From a virus (taxonomy: Duplodnaviria > Caudoviricetes), in IMG/VR virus record IMGVR_UViG_3300047567_000025, positions 128,001 through 192,000 of that record: DNA of 64,000 nt; one strand, 5' to 3'. Numbering within the stretch: the stretch's first letter is position 1; each line of letters begins with the position of its first letter. Under the pieces are notes generated by a model, which did no database searches, was not told where the DNA came from, and was given only the letters and a program-made list of their open reading frames with translations. Below are positions 1 through 54,770 of the stretch, one piece after another. The position numbers and the translations under genes were made by a program.

Positions 1-225
1 AGCACTCATATTCTGTATTTTAACATTCCGAACTTCTTCCAATATAGAATCCATGATATTGTCATTCTTTATAAATTCATTATTAATAAATTTATATTTA
101 AATATATCTTTTAAAACGTCAAGAGGTATCTCATCGGGATTTACTTCATAACCATTTTCAGTAGGTTTAACACCCACTGAAATAACTTCAACGATATTGT
201 TATTATTGTCAGTGCGTATATACAT
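1..225 (-). CDS. Partial ORF running off the left edge (MYIRTDNNNIVEVISVG...), possible tail-fibre assembly/chaperone protein
   Basis: ATG at 225 preceded by SD GAGGTGA; open frame to the window edge; lies downstream of tail-fibre genes; absent from the ORF track. Confidence 0.55.
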   Translation of the reverse strand, partial: MYIRTDNNNNIVEVISVGVKPTENGYEVNPDEIPLDVLKDIFKYKFINNEFIKNDNIMDSILEEVRNVKIQNMSA

Positions 226-246
226 TTTAATCACCTCTGTAAGTAA

Positions 247-1212
247 TTACAATAACATTGAGCAGCCATATATTTTTTGAATGCTGCACGCAGTTTGTGT
301 CACTGCATCATAGCCGTATGTGGTTGTTCCTTTAATTACATATGCTGACATTGTTGCTGTGACCGTAGTGTTGTTCACGGATATACAGCATGATGAAACT
401 TTCGCGTTATTATTAGACGCACCATATTGCGGTGACATACCAATTGCTGCTGTTGTTATAGCTGTCGCAGATGCAGTATCAGGACATTTTGCTTCTACAT
501 AGTGTACACCCGTACTATCACTGATTTGGATAAGAAGATATTCAAAATTATTTGATGCCGAATTAATTGTAACTGTACCAGACCCTGATCCACTATATAG
601 CAACGATGGTGACAATGAATTACCACCAGTCGATACGGTACCTGTCGGTGTTGTTGTTTCTGGAGTATTACTTGTGACAAGGGTTGCGTGATAATATTCG
701 CTACTGCTTTGCTGCGCAAGAATTGTTACTCCTATACGACCATATCTCGGTATTCTCCTATAAACATATAATGTCCATACATTATTTGTAGAAGCAACAA
801 TAACATCGCCTTCGTTGAATCCATATCTAGTCATCCATTTTAATGTCTGAACATAAAGCGTTGTAGTGTTATTACATCTAATATGCACATGTATTATTCC
901 ACATTCCTGATCTCCATAGCCCGATTGCAATAATACAGTTAGAACTTGATCATTACTTCCGACTAAGCTACATGTTATCGCAGCATACCAACCGGTATTA
1001 TTACCCGCATCACTACTGCCAACAAATGACGAGCCAATATCTTTTATAGTTGTAGCAACACCAGACCAGCATACATTATCAAAATCATCATACCATTTTG
1101 CAATCGTACCAAGTGTATTTGATAAATTTGATCCAGAATTAATGTTTGATCTAACGCTTGCATGTGTAAATGTCGGGTATACTTTAACCTTGTTAAGTGT
1201 TTTTGTAGGCAT
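247..1212 (-). CDS. Tail fibre/receptor-binding-like protein
   Basis: 321 aa, Ser/Thr/Gly-rich beta-type composition; N-terminal ~50 aa paralogous to that of 1305..2474; SD GGAGGAG. Confidence 0.6.
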   Translation of the reverse strand: MPTKTLNKVKVYPTFTHASVRSNINSGSNLSNTLGTIAKWYDDFDNVCWSGVATTIKDIGSSFVGSSDAGNNTGWYAAITCSLVGSNDQVLTVLLQSGYGDQECGIIHVHIRCNNTTTLYVQTLKWMTRYGFNEGDVIVASTNNVWTLYVYRRIPRYGRIGVTILAQQSSSEYYHATLVTSNTPETTTPTGTVSTGGNSLSPSLLYSGSGSGTVTINSASNNFEYLLIQISDSTGVHYVEAKCPDTASATAITTAAIGMSPQYGASNNNAKVSSCCISVNNTTVTATMSAYVIKGTTTYGYDAVTQTACSIQKIYGCSMLL

Positions 1213-5704: not shown

Positions 5705-6428
5705 TACATTTCTATTTCTATTTTTTTATTTTCTAAACATATATTTTTATAATGTAGGGGTTGATGTAATATAGTGATAATTACATCAATGGAAAAGTTG
5801 TGATATTAGATAATTAAAGATTAGAAAGCTAAGTAAGTAAGCTAATATTACATTTCTATTTCTATTTCTATTTTTTTATTTTCTAAACATATATTTTTAT
5901 AATGTAGGGGTTGATGTAATATAGTGATAATTACATCAGTGGAAAAGGTGTGATATTAGACTAATTAAAGATTAGAAAGCTAATAAGCTAATATTACATT
6001 TCTATTTCTATTTTTTTATTTTCTAAACATATATTTTTATAATGTAGGGGTTGATGTAATATAGTGATAATTACATCAGTGGAAAGAGTTGTGATATTAG
6101 ATAATTAAAGATTAGAAAGCTAAGTAAGCTTAATAAGCTAATATTACATTTCTATTTCTATTTCTATTTTTTTATTTTCTAAACATATATTTTTATAATG
6201 TATTGATGTAATATAGTGATAATTACATCTGGAAAAGTTGTGATATTAGATAATTAAAGATTAGAAAGCTAATAAGCTAATATTACATTTCTATTTCTAT
6301 TTTTTTATTTTCTAAACATATATTTTTATAATGTAGGGGTTGATGTAATATAGTGATAATTACATCAGTGAAAGAGGTGAGGATATTAGATAATTAAAGA
6401 TTAGAAAGCTAAGTAAGCTAATACTACA
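5705..6428 (+). repeat. Cluster 1 of a ~145-bp dispersed repeat family (5 tandem copies)
   Basis: Core TTTTCTAAACATATATTTTTATAATGTAGGGGTTGATGTAATATAGTGATAATTACATC recurs at ~5731, 5881, 6021, 6177 and 6310; the 4th copy lacks GGGG. Confidence 0.97.
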
Positions 6429-7880: not shown

Positions 7881-7919
7881 TATAGTTTGAATTGATTATT
7901 CCTATTATTTTAATTTTTC

Positions 7920-16311: not shown

Positions 16312-16613
16312 ATTTCTATTTCTATTTTTTTATTTTCTAAACATATATTTTTATAATGTAGGGGTTGATGTAATATAGTGATAATTACATCAATGGAAAA
16401 GGTGAGGATATTAGACTAATTAAAGATTAGAAAGCTAAATAAGCTAATAAGCTTAATAAGCTAATATTACTATTTCTTAATTTCTATTTTTTTATTTTCT
16501 AAACATATATTTTTATAATGTAGGGGTTGATGTAATATAGTGATAATTACATCAATGGAAAAGTTGTGATATTAACTAATTAAAGATTAGAAAGCTAAGT
16601 AAGCTAATATTAC
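16312..16613 (+). repeat. Cluster 2 of the ~145-bp repeat (2 copies)
   Basis: Same core at ~16335 and ~16497. Confidence 0.97.
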
Positions 16614-22467: not shown

Positions 22468-22703
22468 TGTATCACTTCCTTTCATATTAATAATATATTT
22501 TTCAAATCGCAAAAAAATATTATTGCATTTTTTCTATGCTTAGAGGGAGCGTAAAAGAAGGAATGGTTGGATTGATTATTCCTATTATTTTAACTTTTCA
22601 AATATATATTATTAATATGAATAAAAGAATAACAATCGATCAATAAATCAATATTTAAAAGCCATCACAGAGGTGTATTAATCTGTGAAGAAAGAGGTAT
22701 ATT

Positions 22704-32521: not shown

Positions 32522-33901
32522 ATGAAATCAGTAAGATTTAATTATGAAGTCGAATATTTGGTTGATATGATTACAAATAATGGATTCCTCATTAAGAATG
32601 ATGATAAATATTCACCAACAAATATTGACGCATTAATTAATTCATCAAATTTTATGGATTGCGAATATCGTTGTGATTGTGGTGCTTTTATCGGTCAAGA
32701 CATTATTGGTCAGATCTGTCCTAAATGCCATTCGGAAATAGCATTGCACTCACTAAATTTTCAATATACAGGATGGCTTAATCTAAGTCCACACAAAGTA
32801 ATTTCGCCAATATATTACAATATGCTTAAACGAGTCCTTGGAGTAAATATGCTAAAGTTTATTCTTGGAGACTATAAAACTGATAATTCCGTACAGTATA
32901 ACGAAAATGACGTTGACTTCGAAAATAATAAGAAGAATAAGAAGACTGGTAGAATATCACAGAACGATATAGCTTATATACAGAAGAAGATACCTAAGTC
33001 AAAATATATGTATAAGGGTATTGGTCATGATGAATTCTGTAATCGCTTTGAAGAAATAATGACAGCTTGTGCGCCTAAAAATAATGAAGAATTATCAATT
33101 CTTTTAAATGAAAAAGATGATGTATTTACATCGAAAATTCCTATATATTCAACAGCATTTCGACCTGTATCAAAAACATCAGAGACAATGTTCTATCCAA
33201 AAATAAATAAATGGTTTTCTATGATGACATCGATATATTGCAAACTTGAGGATATGGTTCTCGACATTGAAAAAATACAAGCATTAAATTTCATTCAAAA
33301 CTATTGGATTGAAGCCGTCGATTATGTTATCAAAAATGAACTGTCTAAAAAGGATGGCTTTGTCCGTTCAGAAATAGTCGGAGGAACATTTTCGTTTTCT
33401 GCTAGATCAGTCATAATTCTTGACATATCACTGAATGCAGATGAAGTTGATTTGCCGCTATCGATGGTCATGACAGCGTATCAATACAAAATAACACATC
33501 GTTTAGCTGTTAGATATAATATGACATTAGAGCAAGCATATTTGTTTGTGAATACAAATGAGAATAATGAAATTGTTATGAAAATAATTGACGAGATAAT
33601 CGCTGAAGAGCAGTGGATATTTATTCTTCGTGAGCCGACTGATAATCTCGCATCTATTGCACTTTGTAAAATACGTAATTACAAAGTCAATGATGATACA
33701 ATTTCACTACCGCCTGAACCTTTATCAGGATTCAATGCAGATTTTGATGGAGATGCTTTAAATCTAGCATTCTTACCGAAAGAAGTTGTTCCTGATTTTG
33801 AAGCATTTCACTATTCATGCATGACGAATTATGTAACTGAGAATATCAGTATTGATCTACTTTCATGGTGTGATATCTCATTAGGCAGAATGTCAGAATA
33901 A
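32522..33901 (+). CDS. RNA polymerase beta'-like subunit (N-terminal Zn-binding plus catalytic part), probably non-virion RNAP
   Basis: CDCG...CPKC Zn finger, SARSVII, LREPT and catalytic FNADFDGD. Confidence 0.92.
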   Translation: MKSVRFNYEVEYLVDMITNNGFLIKNDDKYSPTNIDALINSSNFMDCEYRCDCGAFIGQDIIGQICPKCHSEIALHSLNFQYTGWLNLSPHKVISPIYYNMLKRVLGVNMLKFILGDYKTDNSVQYNENDVDFENNKKNKKTGRISQNDIAYIQKKIPKSKYMYKGIGHDEFCNRFEEIMTACAPKNNEELSILLNEKDDVFTSKIPIYSTAFRPVSKTSETMFYPKINKWFSMMTSIYCKLEDMVLDIEKIQALNFIQNYWIEAVDYVIKNELSKKDGFVRSEIVGGTFSFSARSVIILDISLNADEVDLPLSMVMTAYQYKITHRLAVRYNMTLEQAYLFVNTNENNEIVMKIIDEIIAEEQWIFILREPTDNLASIALCKIRNYKVNDDTISLPPEPLSGFNADFDGDALNLAFLPKEVVPDFEAFHYSCMTNYVTENISIDLLSWCDISLGRMSE

Positions 33902-33911
33902 TAAATCATAT

Positions 33912-33943
33912 AGATATTGGGGCTAATATGCCCCAATATCTAT
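33912..33943. terminator. Terminator hairpin after the RNAP operon
   Basis: AGATATTGGGGC-taatat-GCCCCAATATCT. Confidence 0.8.
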
Positions 33944-34062
33944 AATTTCTAATATTTAAATATAGCATTACAATTAATAAATTCATCATATATGTATTCG
34001 TATACCTGTATTATCGCTTTCACAACAGTAAATCAACATTATAGAAATAAGGAGGACTTACT

Positions 34063-34275
34063 ATGAAGCAAAATCATTATGGAAATATGTGTTGGTATTG
34101 CAGTAATAACGAATGCAAATTTATTTATACAAATAAATTACAAGAAGGGATGGAACTTGAAGAAGGATCAAAATACAGCCTGAAAAAATGTCCATATTTT
34201 ATAAAGATGACAAAAACAAAGAAACAAAAAACAGAGTGGGTTAAGTCATTTAATGACTTACTTATTATTCACTAA
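34063..34275 (+). CDS. Small Cys-containing protein (70 aa)
   Basis: SD AGGAGG; CWYC...C...CPYF. Confidence 0.65.
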   Translation: MKQNHYGNMCWYCSNNECKFIYTNKLQEGMELEEGSKYSLKKCPYFIKMTKTKKQKTEWVKSFNDLLIIH

Positions 34276-34427
34276 TTAAAAAAACAATCATAAATAGGCT
34301 GATTTATTTAATCAGCCTATTTTTTTTATTTGATATAATAAACCTATTAATATATTTGGATGAGTTAAACAATAAATCATTATAAAAATATCCAAATATA
34401 ATAGTAACGATTAATATTATTATAATT

Positions 34428-34513
34428 GCCTTTGTGGTGGAATTGGCAGACACGAGGGACTTAAAATCCCTTGATTTGATATCATACCGGTTCGAGTCCG
34501 GTCAAAGGCACCA
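34428..34513 (+). tRNA. tRNA-Leu (anticodon TAA)
   Basis: Acceptor stem GCCTTTG/CAAAGGC, D-arm GGAATTGGCAGAC, anticodon arm AGGGA-CTTAAAA-TCCCT, long variable arm, GGTTCGAGTCC, encoded CCA. Confidence 0.96.
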
Positions 34514-34524
34514 GATGTTTTGAT

Positions 34525-34830
34525 GGTACGCTTTCTCAGTATTAAAAAGCGGCTGAATTATTTGTCTCTGGAACGGTAATTCGTATATAGTTATTATTAA
34601 ACGATTAATACAGATCATTAGTATAAATCTATTGTTCGACTTTAACCAGATAAAGCGTGTATTGAAATACAATAGTTATTCAACATATGTTATTATAGAC
34701 TAATTCCAGATGGATTAAAATTGTATATGTGGGATTAGGAGTGACTTAACGATTTAGTTTGATATATATAGTCTTAATAAGTCATAAAGTATGAAATTAG
34801 GATTATAATAACATTACGTTGAACAATAAA
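34525..34830 (+). ncRNA. Candidate structured ncRNA downstream of the tRNA
   Basis: No ORF in the track; several complementary segments, including two pseudoknot-type pairings; closed by a terminator at 34838-34880. Confidence 0.45.
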
Positions 34831-34837
34831 AAGACAT

Positions 34838-34880
34838 TTTATAATTGGAGCCCATATGGGCTCCAATTATAATGTTTTTT
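34838..34880 (+). terminator. Strong terminator after the tRNA/ncRNA region
   Basis: ATAATTGGAGCCC-atat-GGGCTCCAATTAT followed by a T-run. Confidence 0.85.
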
Positions 34881-35160
34881 ATTATTTTGAATCTTTAAAT
34901 ATATATTATTAATATGAATAATAATCGAGCAAGAATACATAAATATGAAAGAAGGTGTTATTATGAATGAAATTAGTGAAATTGTCATTATTGACACAAC
35001 AGATTCAATCATTATAAATGATTAATTTTTAAATACTTTCCAAAACAGCATAAACCAACTTGCTCGATTATTATATAATAAGTAAAATATTTAAATATAA
35101 TAAATTTATTATTAAAGCAATCACAGAGCTGTATACAATCTGTGAAGAAAGAGGTATATT

Positions 35161-35532
35161 ATGATGCAAGACTTTAAAACAATTGATGAATTCGTACGGT
35201 TCCTCGAAACAGTTCCAGCAGGCCTATTCACAAGTGAATCATCATATGAATCATTAGATGATGATGACTCTTCTGATGATGCATTTGACGATTGTTGTCA
35301 TTCATGTGCAACACTCTCATGTTGGCCGAAGTCATATAACGATCCGACAATCGATCAGATCGATTATACATGTTGCTCATTGTTTATCCTCGGAAATGGA
35401 AAATGTAATTGGAATAATATAAACAAAATCCGCGAATATGGTTATGAAGTGCGTGCTGGCGAGGAGGATAGCTTCAGTTGGTTGACCGGTATATTGGAAT
35501 TCCCAGACGGTCGTCAGGTTGTATATGGTTAA
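35161..35532 (+). CDS. Hypothetical protein (123 aa), cassette C cargo
   Basis: Preceded by the conserved leader hairpin and SD. Confidence 0.75.
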   Translation: MMQDFKTIDEFVRFLETVPAGLFTSESSYESLDDDDSSDDAFDDCCHSCATLSCWPKSYNDPTIDQIDYTCCSLFILGNGKCNWNNINKIREYGYEVRAGEEDSFSWLTGILEFPDGRQVVYG

Positions 35533-35566
35533 GAGGTGATGTCATATAAATAAGAAAATAAGCAAT

Positions 35567-37090
35567 ATGTTGTCAAGATTTCCAATGTGTCTTATGTGCA
35601 TATTGGCTATCATGTCCAGTACTGCAATAGGAATTGTCATTAGCAAAATTAACTTGATGGAATCCAAAATATCTCAGTTGTTCACAGTAGAAACCCTGAT
35701 AAATCTGTTTCTGTTATATGTGTTAACCCATGCTTTAGAGATCTTTTTGAAGGTATTTCAAAAAGGCTTTAGTATGAAAGTTACGAATAATTGCTATTTG
35801 AAGTATTTTGACAGAATCTCAAAATCGTCAATAGCTGATATTCAACGAGTATCAACCGGTAAAATATTCGATGCTGTCAACGACATTTCCAAGCATACCG
35901 GTGATATCTTTTCGGAAATGATTACAATCATGCCAACCATAGTCCCGTTTGGTGTATTGATTTATAAACTTGGAAAGGTTTCAATAATATCAGCATTGAT
36001 AACGGTTGTTGACATTATTGTATCGCTCGTCATGATAATGATGACTGATAAGATGTTCAGTTTCGATACGGAGGCAAAGAAATATAAAGCAAAATTGTCA
36101 GGTGTCACTGTTGATAATTTTATGAATATCAAAACCCTGAAATACTTAGGGAAATTTAGTTTTGGTTATTCAAGGTTGAAGAACCAACAACAAGAAACAT
36201 ATCCATATTTTGTCAATAGTGGAAAGATACTCTTTTGGCAATTAATAGATATCGTGATGATAACACCGCTGATTATAAATATTTATATAAGTCGTGGTGA
36301 TACTAATATGATAGCTTTTATACTTTTGAGCAATTATACAATTGATAATACAACTGGCTATTTATGTAATATAGCTGATTTGATTATCGAAAGAAATGCA
36401 GCGTTATCTGTCATCAAAGACATCGATGGTTCTGATATGGAAAAACCAAAATCGATGCCAGACGTATTGAAGCTACATAATATGGGATTCAACTACGGAA
36501 AAGATTCGACACATTTCTATATTGAAGATCTTGAATTCAGGAAAGGTGAAAGATATCATGTCACTGGTGAATCTGGTCAGGGTAAATCTTCATTAGCTAA
36601 TCTGATAGTTGGTGCTATCAAACCAACAAATGGAAAAATTGATAAAATCAAAACATTTTATGTATACCAAGAAACTGAATGTTTTGATGATACATTACGA
36701 AACAATATCAAGTTCTATGATGATTCAATATCCGATCTTGAAATACTGAAACTCTTCGACGAATGCAATATGCTGGATTGGTATTACTCATTGAAAGATG
36801 GGCTTGATACGGTAATGGGTGAAAGAGGATTCAAGCTATCATCTGGTCAGAAGCAGCGTATCAATATTATACGTGCGATTCTGCGTATGAGAGAAATGAA
36901 TGATGAGTTCATTATTCTTGATGAGATTACGTCGAACTTGGATACTGAAACTGAAAAGCTTGCTATTGATCTTATCGACAAGAATTGTAAAGGAACACTG
37001 ATGGTTATATCACATCATGGTGACTTTGCTAATATATGTCGGAACCACATTGAGGTTGTTGAGCATAAATTCATTCAAGCAAAATCATAG
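35567..37090 (+). CDS. ABC transporter, fused permease and ATP-binding domains (exporter type)
   Basis: N-terminal TM helices; Walker A GESGQGKS, signature LSSGQKQR, Walker B IILDE, H-loop ISH. Confidence 0.92.
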   Translation: MLSRFPMCLMCILAIMSSTAIGIVISKINLMESKISQLFTVETLINLFLLYVLTHALEIFLKVFQKGFSMKVTNNCYLKYFDRISKSSIADIQRVSTGKIFDAVNDISKHTGDIFSEMITIMPTIVPFGVLIYKLGKVSIISALITVVDIIVSLVMIMMTDKMFSFDTEAKKYKAKLSGVTVDNFMNIKTLKYLGKFSFGYSRLKNQQQETYPYFVNSGKILFWQLIDIVMITPLIINIYISRGDTNMIAFILLSNYTIDNTTGYLCNIADLIIERNAALSVIKDIDGSDMEKPKSMPDVLKLHNMGFNYGKDSTHFYIEDLEFRKGERYHVTGESGQGKSSLANLIVGAIKPTNGKIDKIKTFYVYQETECFDDTLRNNIKFYDDSISDLEILKLFDECNMLDWYYSLKDGLDTVMGERGFKLSSGQKQRINIIRAILRMREMNDEFIILDEITSNLDTETEKLAIDLIDKNCKGTLMVISHHGDFANICRNHIEVVEHKFIQAKS

Positions 37091-37173
37091 AAATAAACGG
37101 GTCTTTAAAGACCCGTTTAAATAATATTAACGTTTCATGGTATTATATAAATCCATGAGGAAGGAATTTAAAA

Positions 37174-38139
37174 ATGTTATACGCTTACAAAATTCTCACA
37201 GGAAAAGAAAAAATCAAAAAAATCGACTTTATCAACGGTATTGATCCTACTCGTTATGTTGTAACCAATACAGGATACGTTATCGATGATAAAAGAGGAG
37301 TACTAAAGACAGCAAAAAGTGCAAATGGTATACCTGTCATGTCGAATGCTGTATATCTATGTACTGTCGACAATAAATATGTTGAATGTTCAACAGCATA
37401 TATAGTCGCTAAGGCATTCATACCGGTGCCTAAATATATTAGCGAAAAATATTTGATTGCTCATGTTAAATCATGCAATGAGCAAGAATGCTATAATGTA
37501 AATAATATATGCTGGGATATAGATTACTCATATTTCATCGATGACAAATCACTATTGACAAAGACACGCCTACTAATATCTGCAGATGAGCTTCCAGACA
37601 TTATAGCAGCTATTAAGACATCTTTTAATAATGGTGAATTTAATATGTCACACATTGCAAATAAACTAAATTGCAGTCGTAGTAAAGTAGTAACAATATT
37701 ACACTGTAAAAAATTACATCCTGAGTTGGATAAACTTCGTGAAATGTATATGATGAATAGAAGAGCATGCGGCGTTCGTTATTCATTTACGATACCTGAA
37801 ATTGAGGAGATGTGCAAATCTTTAGCAAATAATGAAAAGATTTCAGACGCCATCAGAGAAGTTAATGAAAAAGGTATATCTGTAAGCATCAAATATATGT
37901 CGTTGCTTAGAAAGAAAATCATATGCACTGATATATCAGACAACTTCTTTGGATATGAAAATGCATATAATCCTCCAATAGAAGAATATGATGATATAAC
38001 AGGTGATAAACTGATGGAATATGCCTCATTGGAGGAACTATCATATGTATCATGCTTACGTCGAGATTTGATATACAGTCACATCATGCACAAATATCCA
38101 TATAACGGCGTTATATGGGTAATCAAAGATAATGAATAA
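37174..38139 (+). CDS. Degenerate HNH homing-endonuclease-like DNA-binding protein
   Basis: YVVTNTGYV, YIVAKAFIPVP and NVNNICW resemble the NUMOD4-HNH scaffold (HRLVAEAFIPNP...NLEW); C-terminal HTH-like segments. Confidence 0.55.
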   Translation: MLYAYKILTGKEKIKKIDFINGIDPTRYVVTNTGYVIDDKRGVLKTAKSANGIPVMSNAVYLCTVDNKYVECSTAYIVAKAFIPVPKYISEKYLIAHVKSCNEQECYNVNNICWDIDYSYFIDDKSLLTKTRLLISADELPDIIAAIKTSFNNGEFNMSHIANKLNCSRSKVVTILHCKKLHPELDKLREMYMMNRRACGVRYSFTIPEIEEMCKSLANNEKISDAIREVNEKGISVSIKYMSLLRKKIICTDISDNFFGYENAYNPPIEEYDDITGDKLMEYASLEELSYVSCLRRDLIYSHIMHKYPYNGVIWVIKDNE

Positions 38140-54247: not shown

Positions 54248-54770
54248 TTTTTTTATTTTCTAAACATATATTTTTATAATGTAGGGGTTGATGTAATATA
54301 GTGATAATTACATCAGTGAAAGAGGTGAGGATATTAGATAATTAAAGATTAGAAAGCTAAGTAAGCTAATATTACATTTCTATTCCTTAATTTCTATTTT
54401 TTTATTTTCTAAACATATATTTTTATAATGTAGGGGTTGATGTAATATAGTGATAATTACATCAATGGAAAAGTTGTGATATTAGATAATTAAAGATTAG
54501 AAAGCTAAGTAAGCTTAATAAGCTAATTAAAGCTAATATTACATTTCTATTCCTTAATTTCTATATTTTCTAAACATATATTTTTATAATGTAGGGGTTG
54601 ATGTAATATAGTGATAATTACATCAATGGAAAAGTTGTGATATTAACTAATTAAAACTAAATAAGCTTAATAAGCTAATTAAAGCTAATATTACATTTCT
54701 ATTTCTATTTTTTTATTTTCTAAACATATATTTTTATAATGTAGGGCAGTGATGATATAGTGGTAATTAT
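54248..54770 (+). repeat. Cluster 3 of the ~145-bp repeat (3 full copies plus a degenerate 4th leading into the primase gene)
   Basis: Core at ~54258, 54407 and 54568; the copy at ~54718 diverges after TATAATGTAGGG. Confidence 0.97.

Follow-up and report, generated by a model that had tools for sequence, protein, structure and literature searches.

A long rod-like hairpin, candidate for a structured RNA, in the noncoding trailer behind the tRNA-Leu gene of an uncultured phage

What is encoded in the DNA that separates a phage tRNA gene from its terminator, when this DNA is several hundred nucleotides long and holds no gene? The question is raised by a locus in the window analyzed here, a stretch of 64,000 nt taken from positions 128001-192000 of an IMG/VR viral contig 212 kb long, in which 325 nt (34514-34838) follow a tRNA-Leu gene. 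The original prediction was a pseudoknotted RNA of about 300 nt, possibly a new ribozyme, with elements like P3 and P7 of group I introns. The analysis divides the trailer into two halves, of which the first is a plain spacer, and the second remains, by its predicted fold, a candidate for a structured RNA of ~150 nt.

The contig has a G+C content of 31%, and the trailer region one of 27%. The large ORF upstream of the tRNA gene (Table 1) encodes a fragment of the RNA polymerase β′ subunit, and has hundreds of relatives, located on contigs of up to ~290 kb; therefore, the virus is regarded as a jumbo phage of the phiKZ-like type, whose multisubunit polymerase is split. A scan of the whole contig found the tRNA-Leu(UAA) gene as its sole tRNA gene. 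Terminators stand on both outer sides of the tRNA unit, with no terminator-like site on the + strand from 34513 to 34839, and the trailer probably shares the transcription unit of the tRNA, with which it would be cotranscribed from the promoter candidate listed in Table 1. The 18-mer around this candidate does not recur in the window above chance. The 70-aa ORF that precedes the unit displays the spacing CxxC...C...CP and matches no Pfam family; in several strain contigs it takes forms of 46-62 aa with an altered or truncated C terminus, and its third-position diversity (0.05, five times that of β′) suggests relaxed constraint.

Table 1. Features of the tRNA-Leu locus, in window coordinates
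Feature	Position	Strand	Basis or remark
β′-N ORF	32522-33901	+	Pfam (RNA_pol_Rpb1_2)
Terminator after β′-N ORF	33909-33944	+	terminator scan
70-aa Cys-rich ORF	34063-34275	+	ORF call
Terminator of 70-aa ORF	34292-34322	+	terminator scan
TGATATAAT, extended -10-like promoter candidate of the tRNA unit	34331-34339	+	directly 3′ of the terminator of the 70-aa ORF; putative activity
tRNA-Leu(UAA), encoded CCA	34428-34513	+	ARAGORN; Rfam RF00005, 57.9 bits
AT-rich trailer spacer, without ORF or structure signal	34514-34674	+	fold z, stops, Rfam; contains the first two short hairpins of the original prediction
Long unbranched imperfect hairpin	34675-34827	+	folding energy and z (see text)
Degenerate phage promoter motif in the 3′ arm of the hairpin	34758-34782	+	PWM (see text)
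Intrinsic terminator, 15 pairs (6 G-C), then T-run	34839-34872	+	closes the tRNA unit; also first part of the repeated cassette
Phage promoter motif	34893-34917	+	motif scan
Repeated intergenic cassette (terminator, promoter motif, micro-ORF, leader with RBS)	34836-35169	+	right boundary of the unique trailer
Next gene start	35161	+	

The stretch between the CCA of the tRNA and the strong, T-run terminator had been described as free of ORFs, and so it is: each of the six frames of the 325 nt contains 5-12 stops; in five frames TAA is joined by TAG and/or TGA, and in the sixth by TAG. Because more than one stop type occurs in every frame, no single codon reassignment opens a frame. Two candidates were discarded, namely, a 56-aa ORF on the - strand (34502-34672), which lacks an RBS and whose frame is shifted by the +AA variant of the strain contig L103, and a pseudogene remnant, for which a tblastn search using 827 fragments of ORFs from relatives returned only noise. 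Likewise, Rfam contains no match at E <= 10 for a second tRNA-like element in the trailer.

The two halves of the trailer differ in their folding. When compared with dinucleotide-shuffled controls, the spacer (34514-34675) has z = -0.09, with 80 of 200 shuffles folding as well, while the + strand of 34672-34830 reaches -41.6 kcal/mol against -23.6 ± 2.9 in shuffles (z = -6.3). Thus, the folding signal that was anticipated for a unit of ~300 nt is confined to its 3′ 150 nt. The structure is a hairpin of 58 pairs (40 A-U, 7 G-C, and 11 G-U) with the apex near 34743-34748 and an asymmetric internal loop at ~34784-34795, and it ends 11 nt before the terminator. A scan of both strands of all 44 intergenic segments in the contig, 15.4 kb in sum, ranked it as the longest and most stable unbranched fold, the sole window of comparable stability (contig 117147-117293) being an ordinary G+C-rich bidirectional terminator. 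When the predicted transcript of 540 nt (34346-34885) is folded as a whole, the hairpin stays a domain of its own adjoining the terminator.

All of the complementarities on which the pseudoknot had been built are present in the sequence: CGCTTT/AAAGCG at 34529-34534/34546-34551, GAATTA/TAATTC at 34555-34560/34577-34582, TCTGGAA at 34567-34573 with TTCCAGA at 34704-34710, AGACTA at 34697-34702 with TAGTCT at 34769-34774, and TGACTTA at 34742-34748 with TAAGTCA at 34778-34784. The outer stem, 34679-34697/34804-34823, is the base of the 58-bp hairpin. However, the region contains 45 perfectly complementary 6-mer pairs and 16 7-mer pairs, versus 38 ± 8 and 11 ± 5 in 500 dinucleotide shuffles, and helices this short are uninformative in a sequence with 27% G+C. 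The energies argue in the same direction, as the outer stem alone yields -10.3 kcal/mol, and -12.1 or -13.7 kcal/mol when one or the other crossing helix is added; these contribute only -1.8 and -3.4 kcal/mol, and both compete with the nested hairpin, so that the pseudoknot is ~26 kcal/mol worse than the plain hairpin and is not supported.

The same holds for the proposed catalytic core. Rfam was searched by cmscan over the window at the gathering score, where only the tRNA was recovered, and over 34300-35000 at E <= 10 with 4227 families, where nothing emerged but the tRNA and chance microRNA-type matches on the terminator palindrome; at E <= 10 there is no match to the group I intron (RF00028), GOLLD, ROOL, HEARO, HDV-type, or 6S families. 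A self-splicing RNA with a group-I-like core would also interrupt a gene, and here the tRNA is intact, no ORF fragment flanks the stretch, and the search for protein similarity to genes of the neighbors was negative; the first reading had itself seen no evident split host gene. What is shared with group I introns, GOLLD, and ROOL is the neighborhood only, a structured RNA near phage tRNA genes, whereas the fold seen here is a simple hairpin with no multidomain core.

A second version of the catalytic reading is an HDV-like theta ribozyme that trims the tRNA's 3′ terminus. Theta ribozymes adjoin phage tRNAs, with tRNA-Leu among their commonest partners, and their G1 lies within ±5 nt of the tRNA's 3′ end (PMC10879173). 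The noncoding sequence directly behind this phage tRNA-Leu resembles that arrangement, and a very lax HDV-like descriptor of our own (run over 34505-34664) is satisfied by a fold beginning at 34518, 4 nt past the CCA. This solution, however, places U rather than G at position 1 and combines a P1 of A-U and G-U pairs only with a 3-bp P2 that includes two wobbles; all solutions begin at U34518, none having G1, and solutions also occur in 29 of 300 shuffles; thus, the theta-type fold is at chance level. The locus also differs from theta ribozymes by the absence of a G1 within 5 nt and of a credible nested double pseudoknot, and by its encoded CCA, which is found in only 4.5% of theta-linked tRNAs (PMC10879173). 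Furthermore, theta ribozymes belong to gut phages of Bacteroidota or Bacillota, whereas the record names here look like sewage samples. Taken with the chance frequency of the group-I-like helices, their defeat by the nested hairpin, and the lack of Rfam ribozyme or intron matches, a self-cleaving or self-splicing RNA is extremely improbable, and the description of the stretch as a pseudoknotted or group-I-like ribozyme is not supported. The broader suggestion of a noncoding RNA fares better in part: the noncoding 3′ half folds far beyond shuffles, even though its catalytic interpretation does not stand.

The signal may belong to an RNA or to the DNA itself. The - strand of the same segment also folds better than shuffles (-29.1 kcal/mol, z = -4.6); therefore, much of the signal is a Watson-Crick palindrome in the DNA. 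The + strand is nevertheless more stable by 12.5 kcal/mol, and an arm-to-arm alignment, which scored both transition types alike, contains 49 Watson-Crick positions, 11 of the G-U type on the + strand, and 4 of the A-C type, which become G-U on the - strand; this 11:4 bias is not significant (one-sided p ~0.06, our own binomial estimate). The apical part, where GGGAUUAGG faces UUUAGUUUG, pairs almost solely via G-U, and for this reason, the apical stem can form only as + strand RNA and is no DNA palindrome. The strand asymmetry and the G-U apex lean, without proof, toward an RNA hairpin made from the tRNA strand. The apex GAGTGACTTAA (34739-34749) also matches the anticodon arm of the tRNA, GAGGGACTTAA (34454-34464, including CUUAA of the anticodon loop), at 10 of 11 bases, a likeness that is probably due to chance, since eight short repeats of this type occur within 650 nt.

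The preferred explanation, with a probability of roughly 0.4, is that the trailer acts in cis as a 3′ module in the transcript of tRNA-Leu, composed of the long duplex and the terminator. Transcription would probably start at the extended -10-like TGATATAAT, run through the tRNA and the 325 nt of noncoding RNA, and stop at the terminator that closes the unit. The first 160 nt would then provide an unstructured AU-rich spacer, of the type where host endonucleases begin tRNA 3′ maturation, while the last 150 nt would form the rod-like 58-bp hairpin abutting the terminator hairpin. This double stem-loop may block 3′-to-5′ exonucleases until the tRNA is released, the duplex may be a site for double-strand-specific (RNase III-type) cutting, and the two stems together may back up termination ahead of the next expression cassette; the leftover would be a stable byproduct RNA of roughly 200 nt. 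In favor of such a module are the flanking terminators and the uninterrupted path between them, the z value of the hairpin, which stays at -4.3 in the major haplotype, its rank among the intergenic folds and its independence in the folded transcript, the greater stability of the + strand with the (not significant) excess of G-U-type positions, and the invariance of the basal stem described below. On the other side are the - strand fold, since most of the signal can be accounted for by a palindrome in the DNA, and the comparative data.

These data concern, first, the distribution of the element. The stretch is carried by ~16 metagenomic contigs, recovered from ENA and Logan assemblies via the clusters of the neighboring 70-aa ORF and β′, which are 98-99.6% identical to the window and whose record names suggest sewage surveys. 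The route via the neighboring genes through a set of 5.8 billion proteins retrieved only strain-level copies; matches in phage GenBank records were limited to the tRNA; searches of viral, metagenome, and genome collections for two exact words, one from the hairpin and one from the variable arm of the tRNA, had no match; and nhmmer over ~700 kb of the loci of relatives gave no homologue. A covariance model built on the hairpin (R1) recovers its own locus (E 8e-38) but no further site, whether in the contig or in 45 related records, and the 212-kb contig contains no paralogue. Relatives with a 58-81% identical β′ (L002, L007, L009, L011, L012, L014-L016, and L022) have unrelated genes directly after it, and neither the tRNA nor the trailer was found there by BLAST, nhmmer, or tRNA scans. 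So far, the element is known from one phage species, where it lies inside a hypervariable island.

This island spans 33902-38139 in the present phage and includes the 70-aa ORF, the tRNA, a 123-aa ORF, an ABC-type ATPase, and a 321-aa ORF; the strain-level contig L149 is devoid of the ATPase gene. In L002, L007, L009, L011, L014-L016, and L022, the ORFs directly after β′-N are 83-240 aa long and unrelated. The number of tRNA genes also varies among relatives, with 10 in G001, 13 in G002, and 4 in G006, compared with the one of this phage, whose contig is 76% complete. The genes are clustered at 95253-102915 in G001 and at 232006-247962 in G002. The G002 cluster, the one inspected, has gaps of ~600-680 nt between some tRNAs, two of them with ORFs of 158-181 aa, perhaps mobile endonucleases, and none of these long spacers has a long hairpin.

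The second kind of comparative data comes from the strain contigs themselves. The trailer varies at 34543 (+AA), 34588, 34591, 34600, 34722, 34728, and in the length of a TA repeat at 34761-34763. Segregating sites number 3/161 in the spacer and 4/153 in the hairpin, and together (7/314) they are as frequent as at the third codon positions of β′ (14/459), a comparison of low power, while the tRNA has 0/86. Thus, at this power, the trailer of the strain contigs gives no sign of constraint above a near-neutral level. The window haplotype, with T at 34728, is the one that folds with -41.6 kcal/mol; the majority haplotype has G at this position, which creates a G·A mismatch and reduces the energy to -37.6 kcal/mol (z = -4.3). 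The extra TA of L101 reduces it to -35.8 kcal/mol, and T34722C with the loss of a TA, seen in L102 and L144, to -32.8 kcal/mol with refolding of the apical part. Hence, across four haplotypes of 98-99.6% identical homologues, the natural variants all destabilize the apical stem or change its pairing, and none of them comes with a compensating change. The outer, basal stem of ~25 pairs is invariant in all strain contigs, as is most of the region. For the cis-acting module, the missing diverged homologues, the undetectable constraint, and the uncompensated apical variants are the principal counterarguments.

The same observations are at home in a different explanation, in which the hairpin is a neutral DNA relic, that is, a scar of inverted duplication or recombination with a decayed copy of the promoter in it. 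The scar would date from the entry of the tRNA cassette into the hypervariable island, and it would be transcribed only passively, with no selected role for the RNA. One argument for this possibility is the promoter copy. A recurrent 25-nt motif with the consensus TTTCAAATATATATTATTAATATGA occurs at 12 sites of the contig, upstream of genes, including the window positions 7916, 22482(-), 22596, 34893, 44616(-), and 53783(-). At 22482(-), it lies ~16 nt before the start codon, and therefore transcription would start at or near its TATG end; by analogy with phiKZ late promoters, the motif is probably a promoter of the phage polymerase with its start at TATG. The 3′ arm of the hairpin contains a degenerate copy, with a PWM score of 12.7 that falls in the top 0.006% of genome positions, compared with 25-36 for the trained sites, and this copy ends in TAAG where good copies have TATG. 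PhiKZ late promoters cannot do without TATG, at whose G transcription starts (PMC4666361), which argues, by analogy, that the copy in the hairpin arm is inactive.

Promoter-bearing intergenic DNA may have given rise to the hairpin by inverted duplication or recombination, an origin with which the copy is compatible. It matches an intergenic motif of the relative G004 at 21 of 22 bases, and is closer to this version than to that of the phage itself, and elsewhere in the window a divergent promoter pair, 22482(-)/22596(+), already forms an inverted repeat in DNA. The hypervariable site behind β′-N, where relatives have unrelated genes and no tRNA or hairpin, the SNP density equal to that of third codon positions, the slippage of the TA repeat with the uncompensated stem changes, and the fold of the - strand all agree with a relic. 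It is opposed by the apical pairing of nearly only G-U, available to the + strand RNA alone, by the 12.5 kcal/mol that separate the strands, and by the intactness of the element in ~16 contigs from many samples, although these differ by only 0.4-2%. On balance, a neutral relic is a serious, if tentative, possibility, nearly as likely as the cis-acting module.

The right boundary of the trailer is itself a repeated sequence. A second copy of the cassette, 94.6% identical, lies at contig 124992-125323, 3 kb before the window, and at its two sites the 336-bp cassette stands in front of unrelated genes. Its micro-ORF (34945-35025) encodes 26 aa and has its own RBS, and several metagenome assemblies break at the left edge of the cassette. 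Another repeat of this genome has a 28-nt core, TTTTCTAAACATATATTTTTATAATGTA, in 22 exact copies; in most cases GGGG and a conserved hairpin come next, and the units, of ~145 bp, are arranged in tandem. Copies are located at 5729-6335, 16333-16522, 54256-54743, and 63917 of the window and at 36832-37016(-) and 96934-97672(-) of the contig, and together they look like a multicopy family of promoters plus small RNAs.

The hairpin could also be imagined as a miniature inverted-repeat mobile element inserted behind the tRNA, given its size of 153 bp, its terminal inverted repeats of ~20 nt, and the presence of ACAATA at both edges (34668-34673 and 34823-34828). Nevertheless, a flanking repeat of 6 nt is expected by chance at 27% G+C, the pairing spans the whole unit and not its ends alone, and there is no second copy in the contig by BLAST or the covariance model, nor any copy in the 45 related phage records or the exact-word scans of public collections, all of which make such an insertion very improbable.

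A further explanation moves the function away from the transcript of origin. Processing of the tRNA precursor would set free the hairpin and the terminator as a stable ~200-nt RNA acting in trans, as a decoy or sponge for host RNase III or for a defense that senses double-stranded RNA, as a sponge of small RNAs in the manner of 3′ETS-leuZ, or as a promoter mimic that titrates the phage polymerase. Its position and architecture match those of RNAC and RNAD of phage T4 (PMC3014915), its stability is exceptional for this genome, and its duplex contains a promoter-like sequence. Conversely, no constraint and no homologue was detected, no 6S family matches in Rfam at E <= 10, and the best complementarity or similarity to the genome (32.6 bits, window 218-258) is equaled or beaten by 77% of shuffled queries, by which this segment was dismissed as an antisense target or similar leader. 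A trans-acting RNA is, therefore, unlikely. The narrower proposal, that the rod and terminator are excised and accumulate as a lineage-specific trans RNA of ~200 nt, serving as a double-stranded decoy for host RNase III or RNA-sensing defense or as a 6S-like promoter mimic that titrates one of the multisubunit RNA polymerases of the phage, is more doubtful still; the 6S-like variant is conceivable because the duplex carries a copy of the promoter motif of the phage.

Other systems help to place the cis-acting module, which stays the preferred reading. 3′ETS-leuZ, the 3′ external transcribed spacer of the E. coli glyW-cysT-leuZ operon, is a sponge for sRNAs, short, and active via single-stranded complementarity to them. 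Like the present trailer, it lies between the 3′ end of a tRNA-Leu and an intrinsic terminator, and it survives processing and can function itself, but the trailer examined here is 325 nt long, dominated by the duplex, and without complementarity to a target beyond chance. RNase III processing hairpins, such as the sites of the phage T7 early region (~20-30 bp) and the leader-trailer stalks of rRNA, are likewise long imperfect duplexes with internal loops between functional units of a primary transcript; the hairpin described here differs by its 58 bp, compared with ~20-30 bp in T7, and its cleavage is putative.

The closest parallel is offered by RNAC and RNAD of T4, also named species 1 and 2 stable RNAs, which are strongly folded noncoding RNAs located downstream in a tRNA transcription unit and have no known role (PMC3014915). 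They share with the present element the location of a folded noncoding RNA downstream of a phage tRNA, in the same predicted unit, and differ in that they accompany a tRNA cluster, whereas here one tRNA is followed by a single, predicted 58-bp rod.

The value of the finding is modest, as the element belongs to one phage species, constraint on it is not detectable, and it may be a relic without function. Still, structured RNA behind phage tRNA genes is a recurrent theme, represented by T4 RNAC and RNAD, theta ribozymes, GOLLD, and ROOL, most of them without a known role, and to these the locus would add a simple example, in which one tRNA is followed by a rod-like hairpin and a terminator in an uncultured phiKZ-like jumbo phage.
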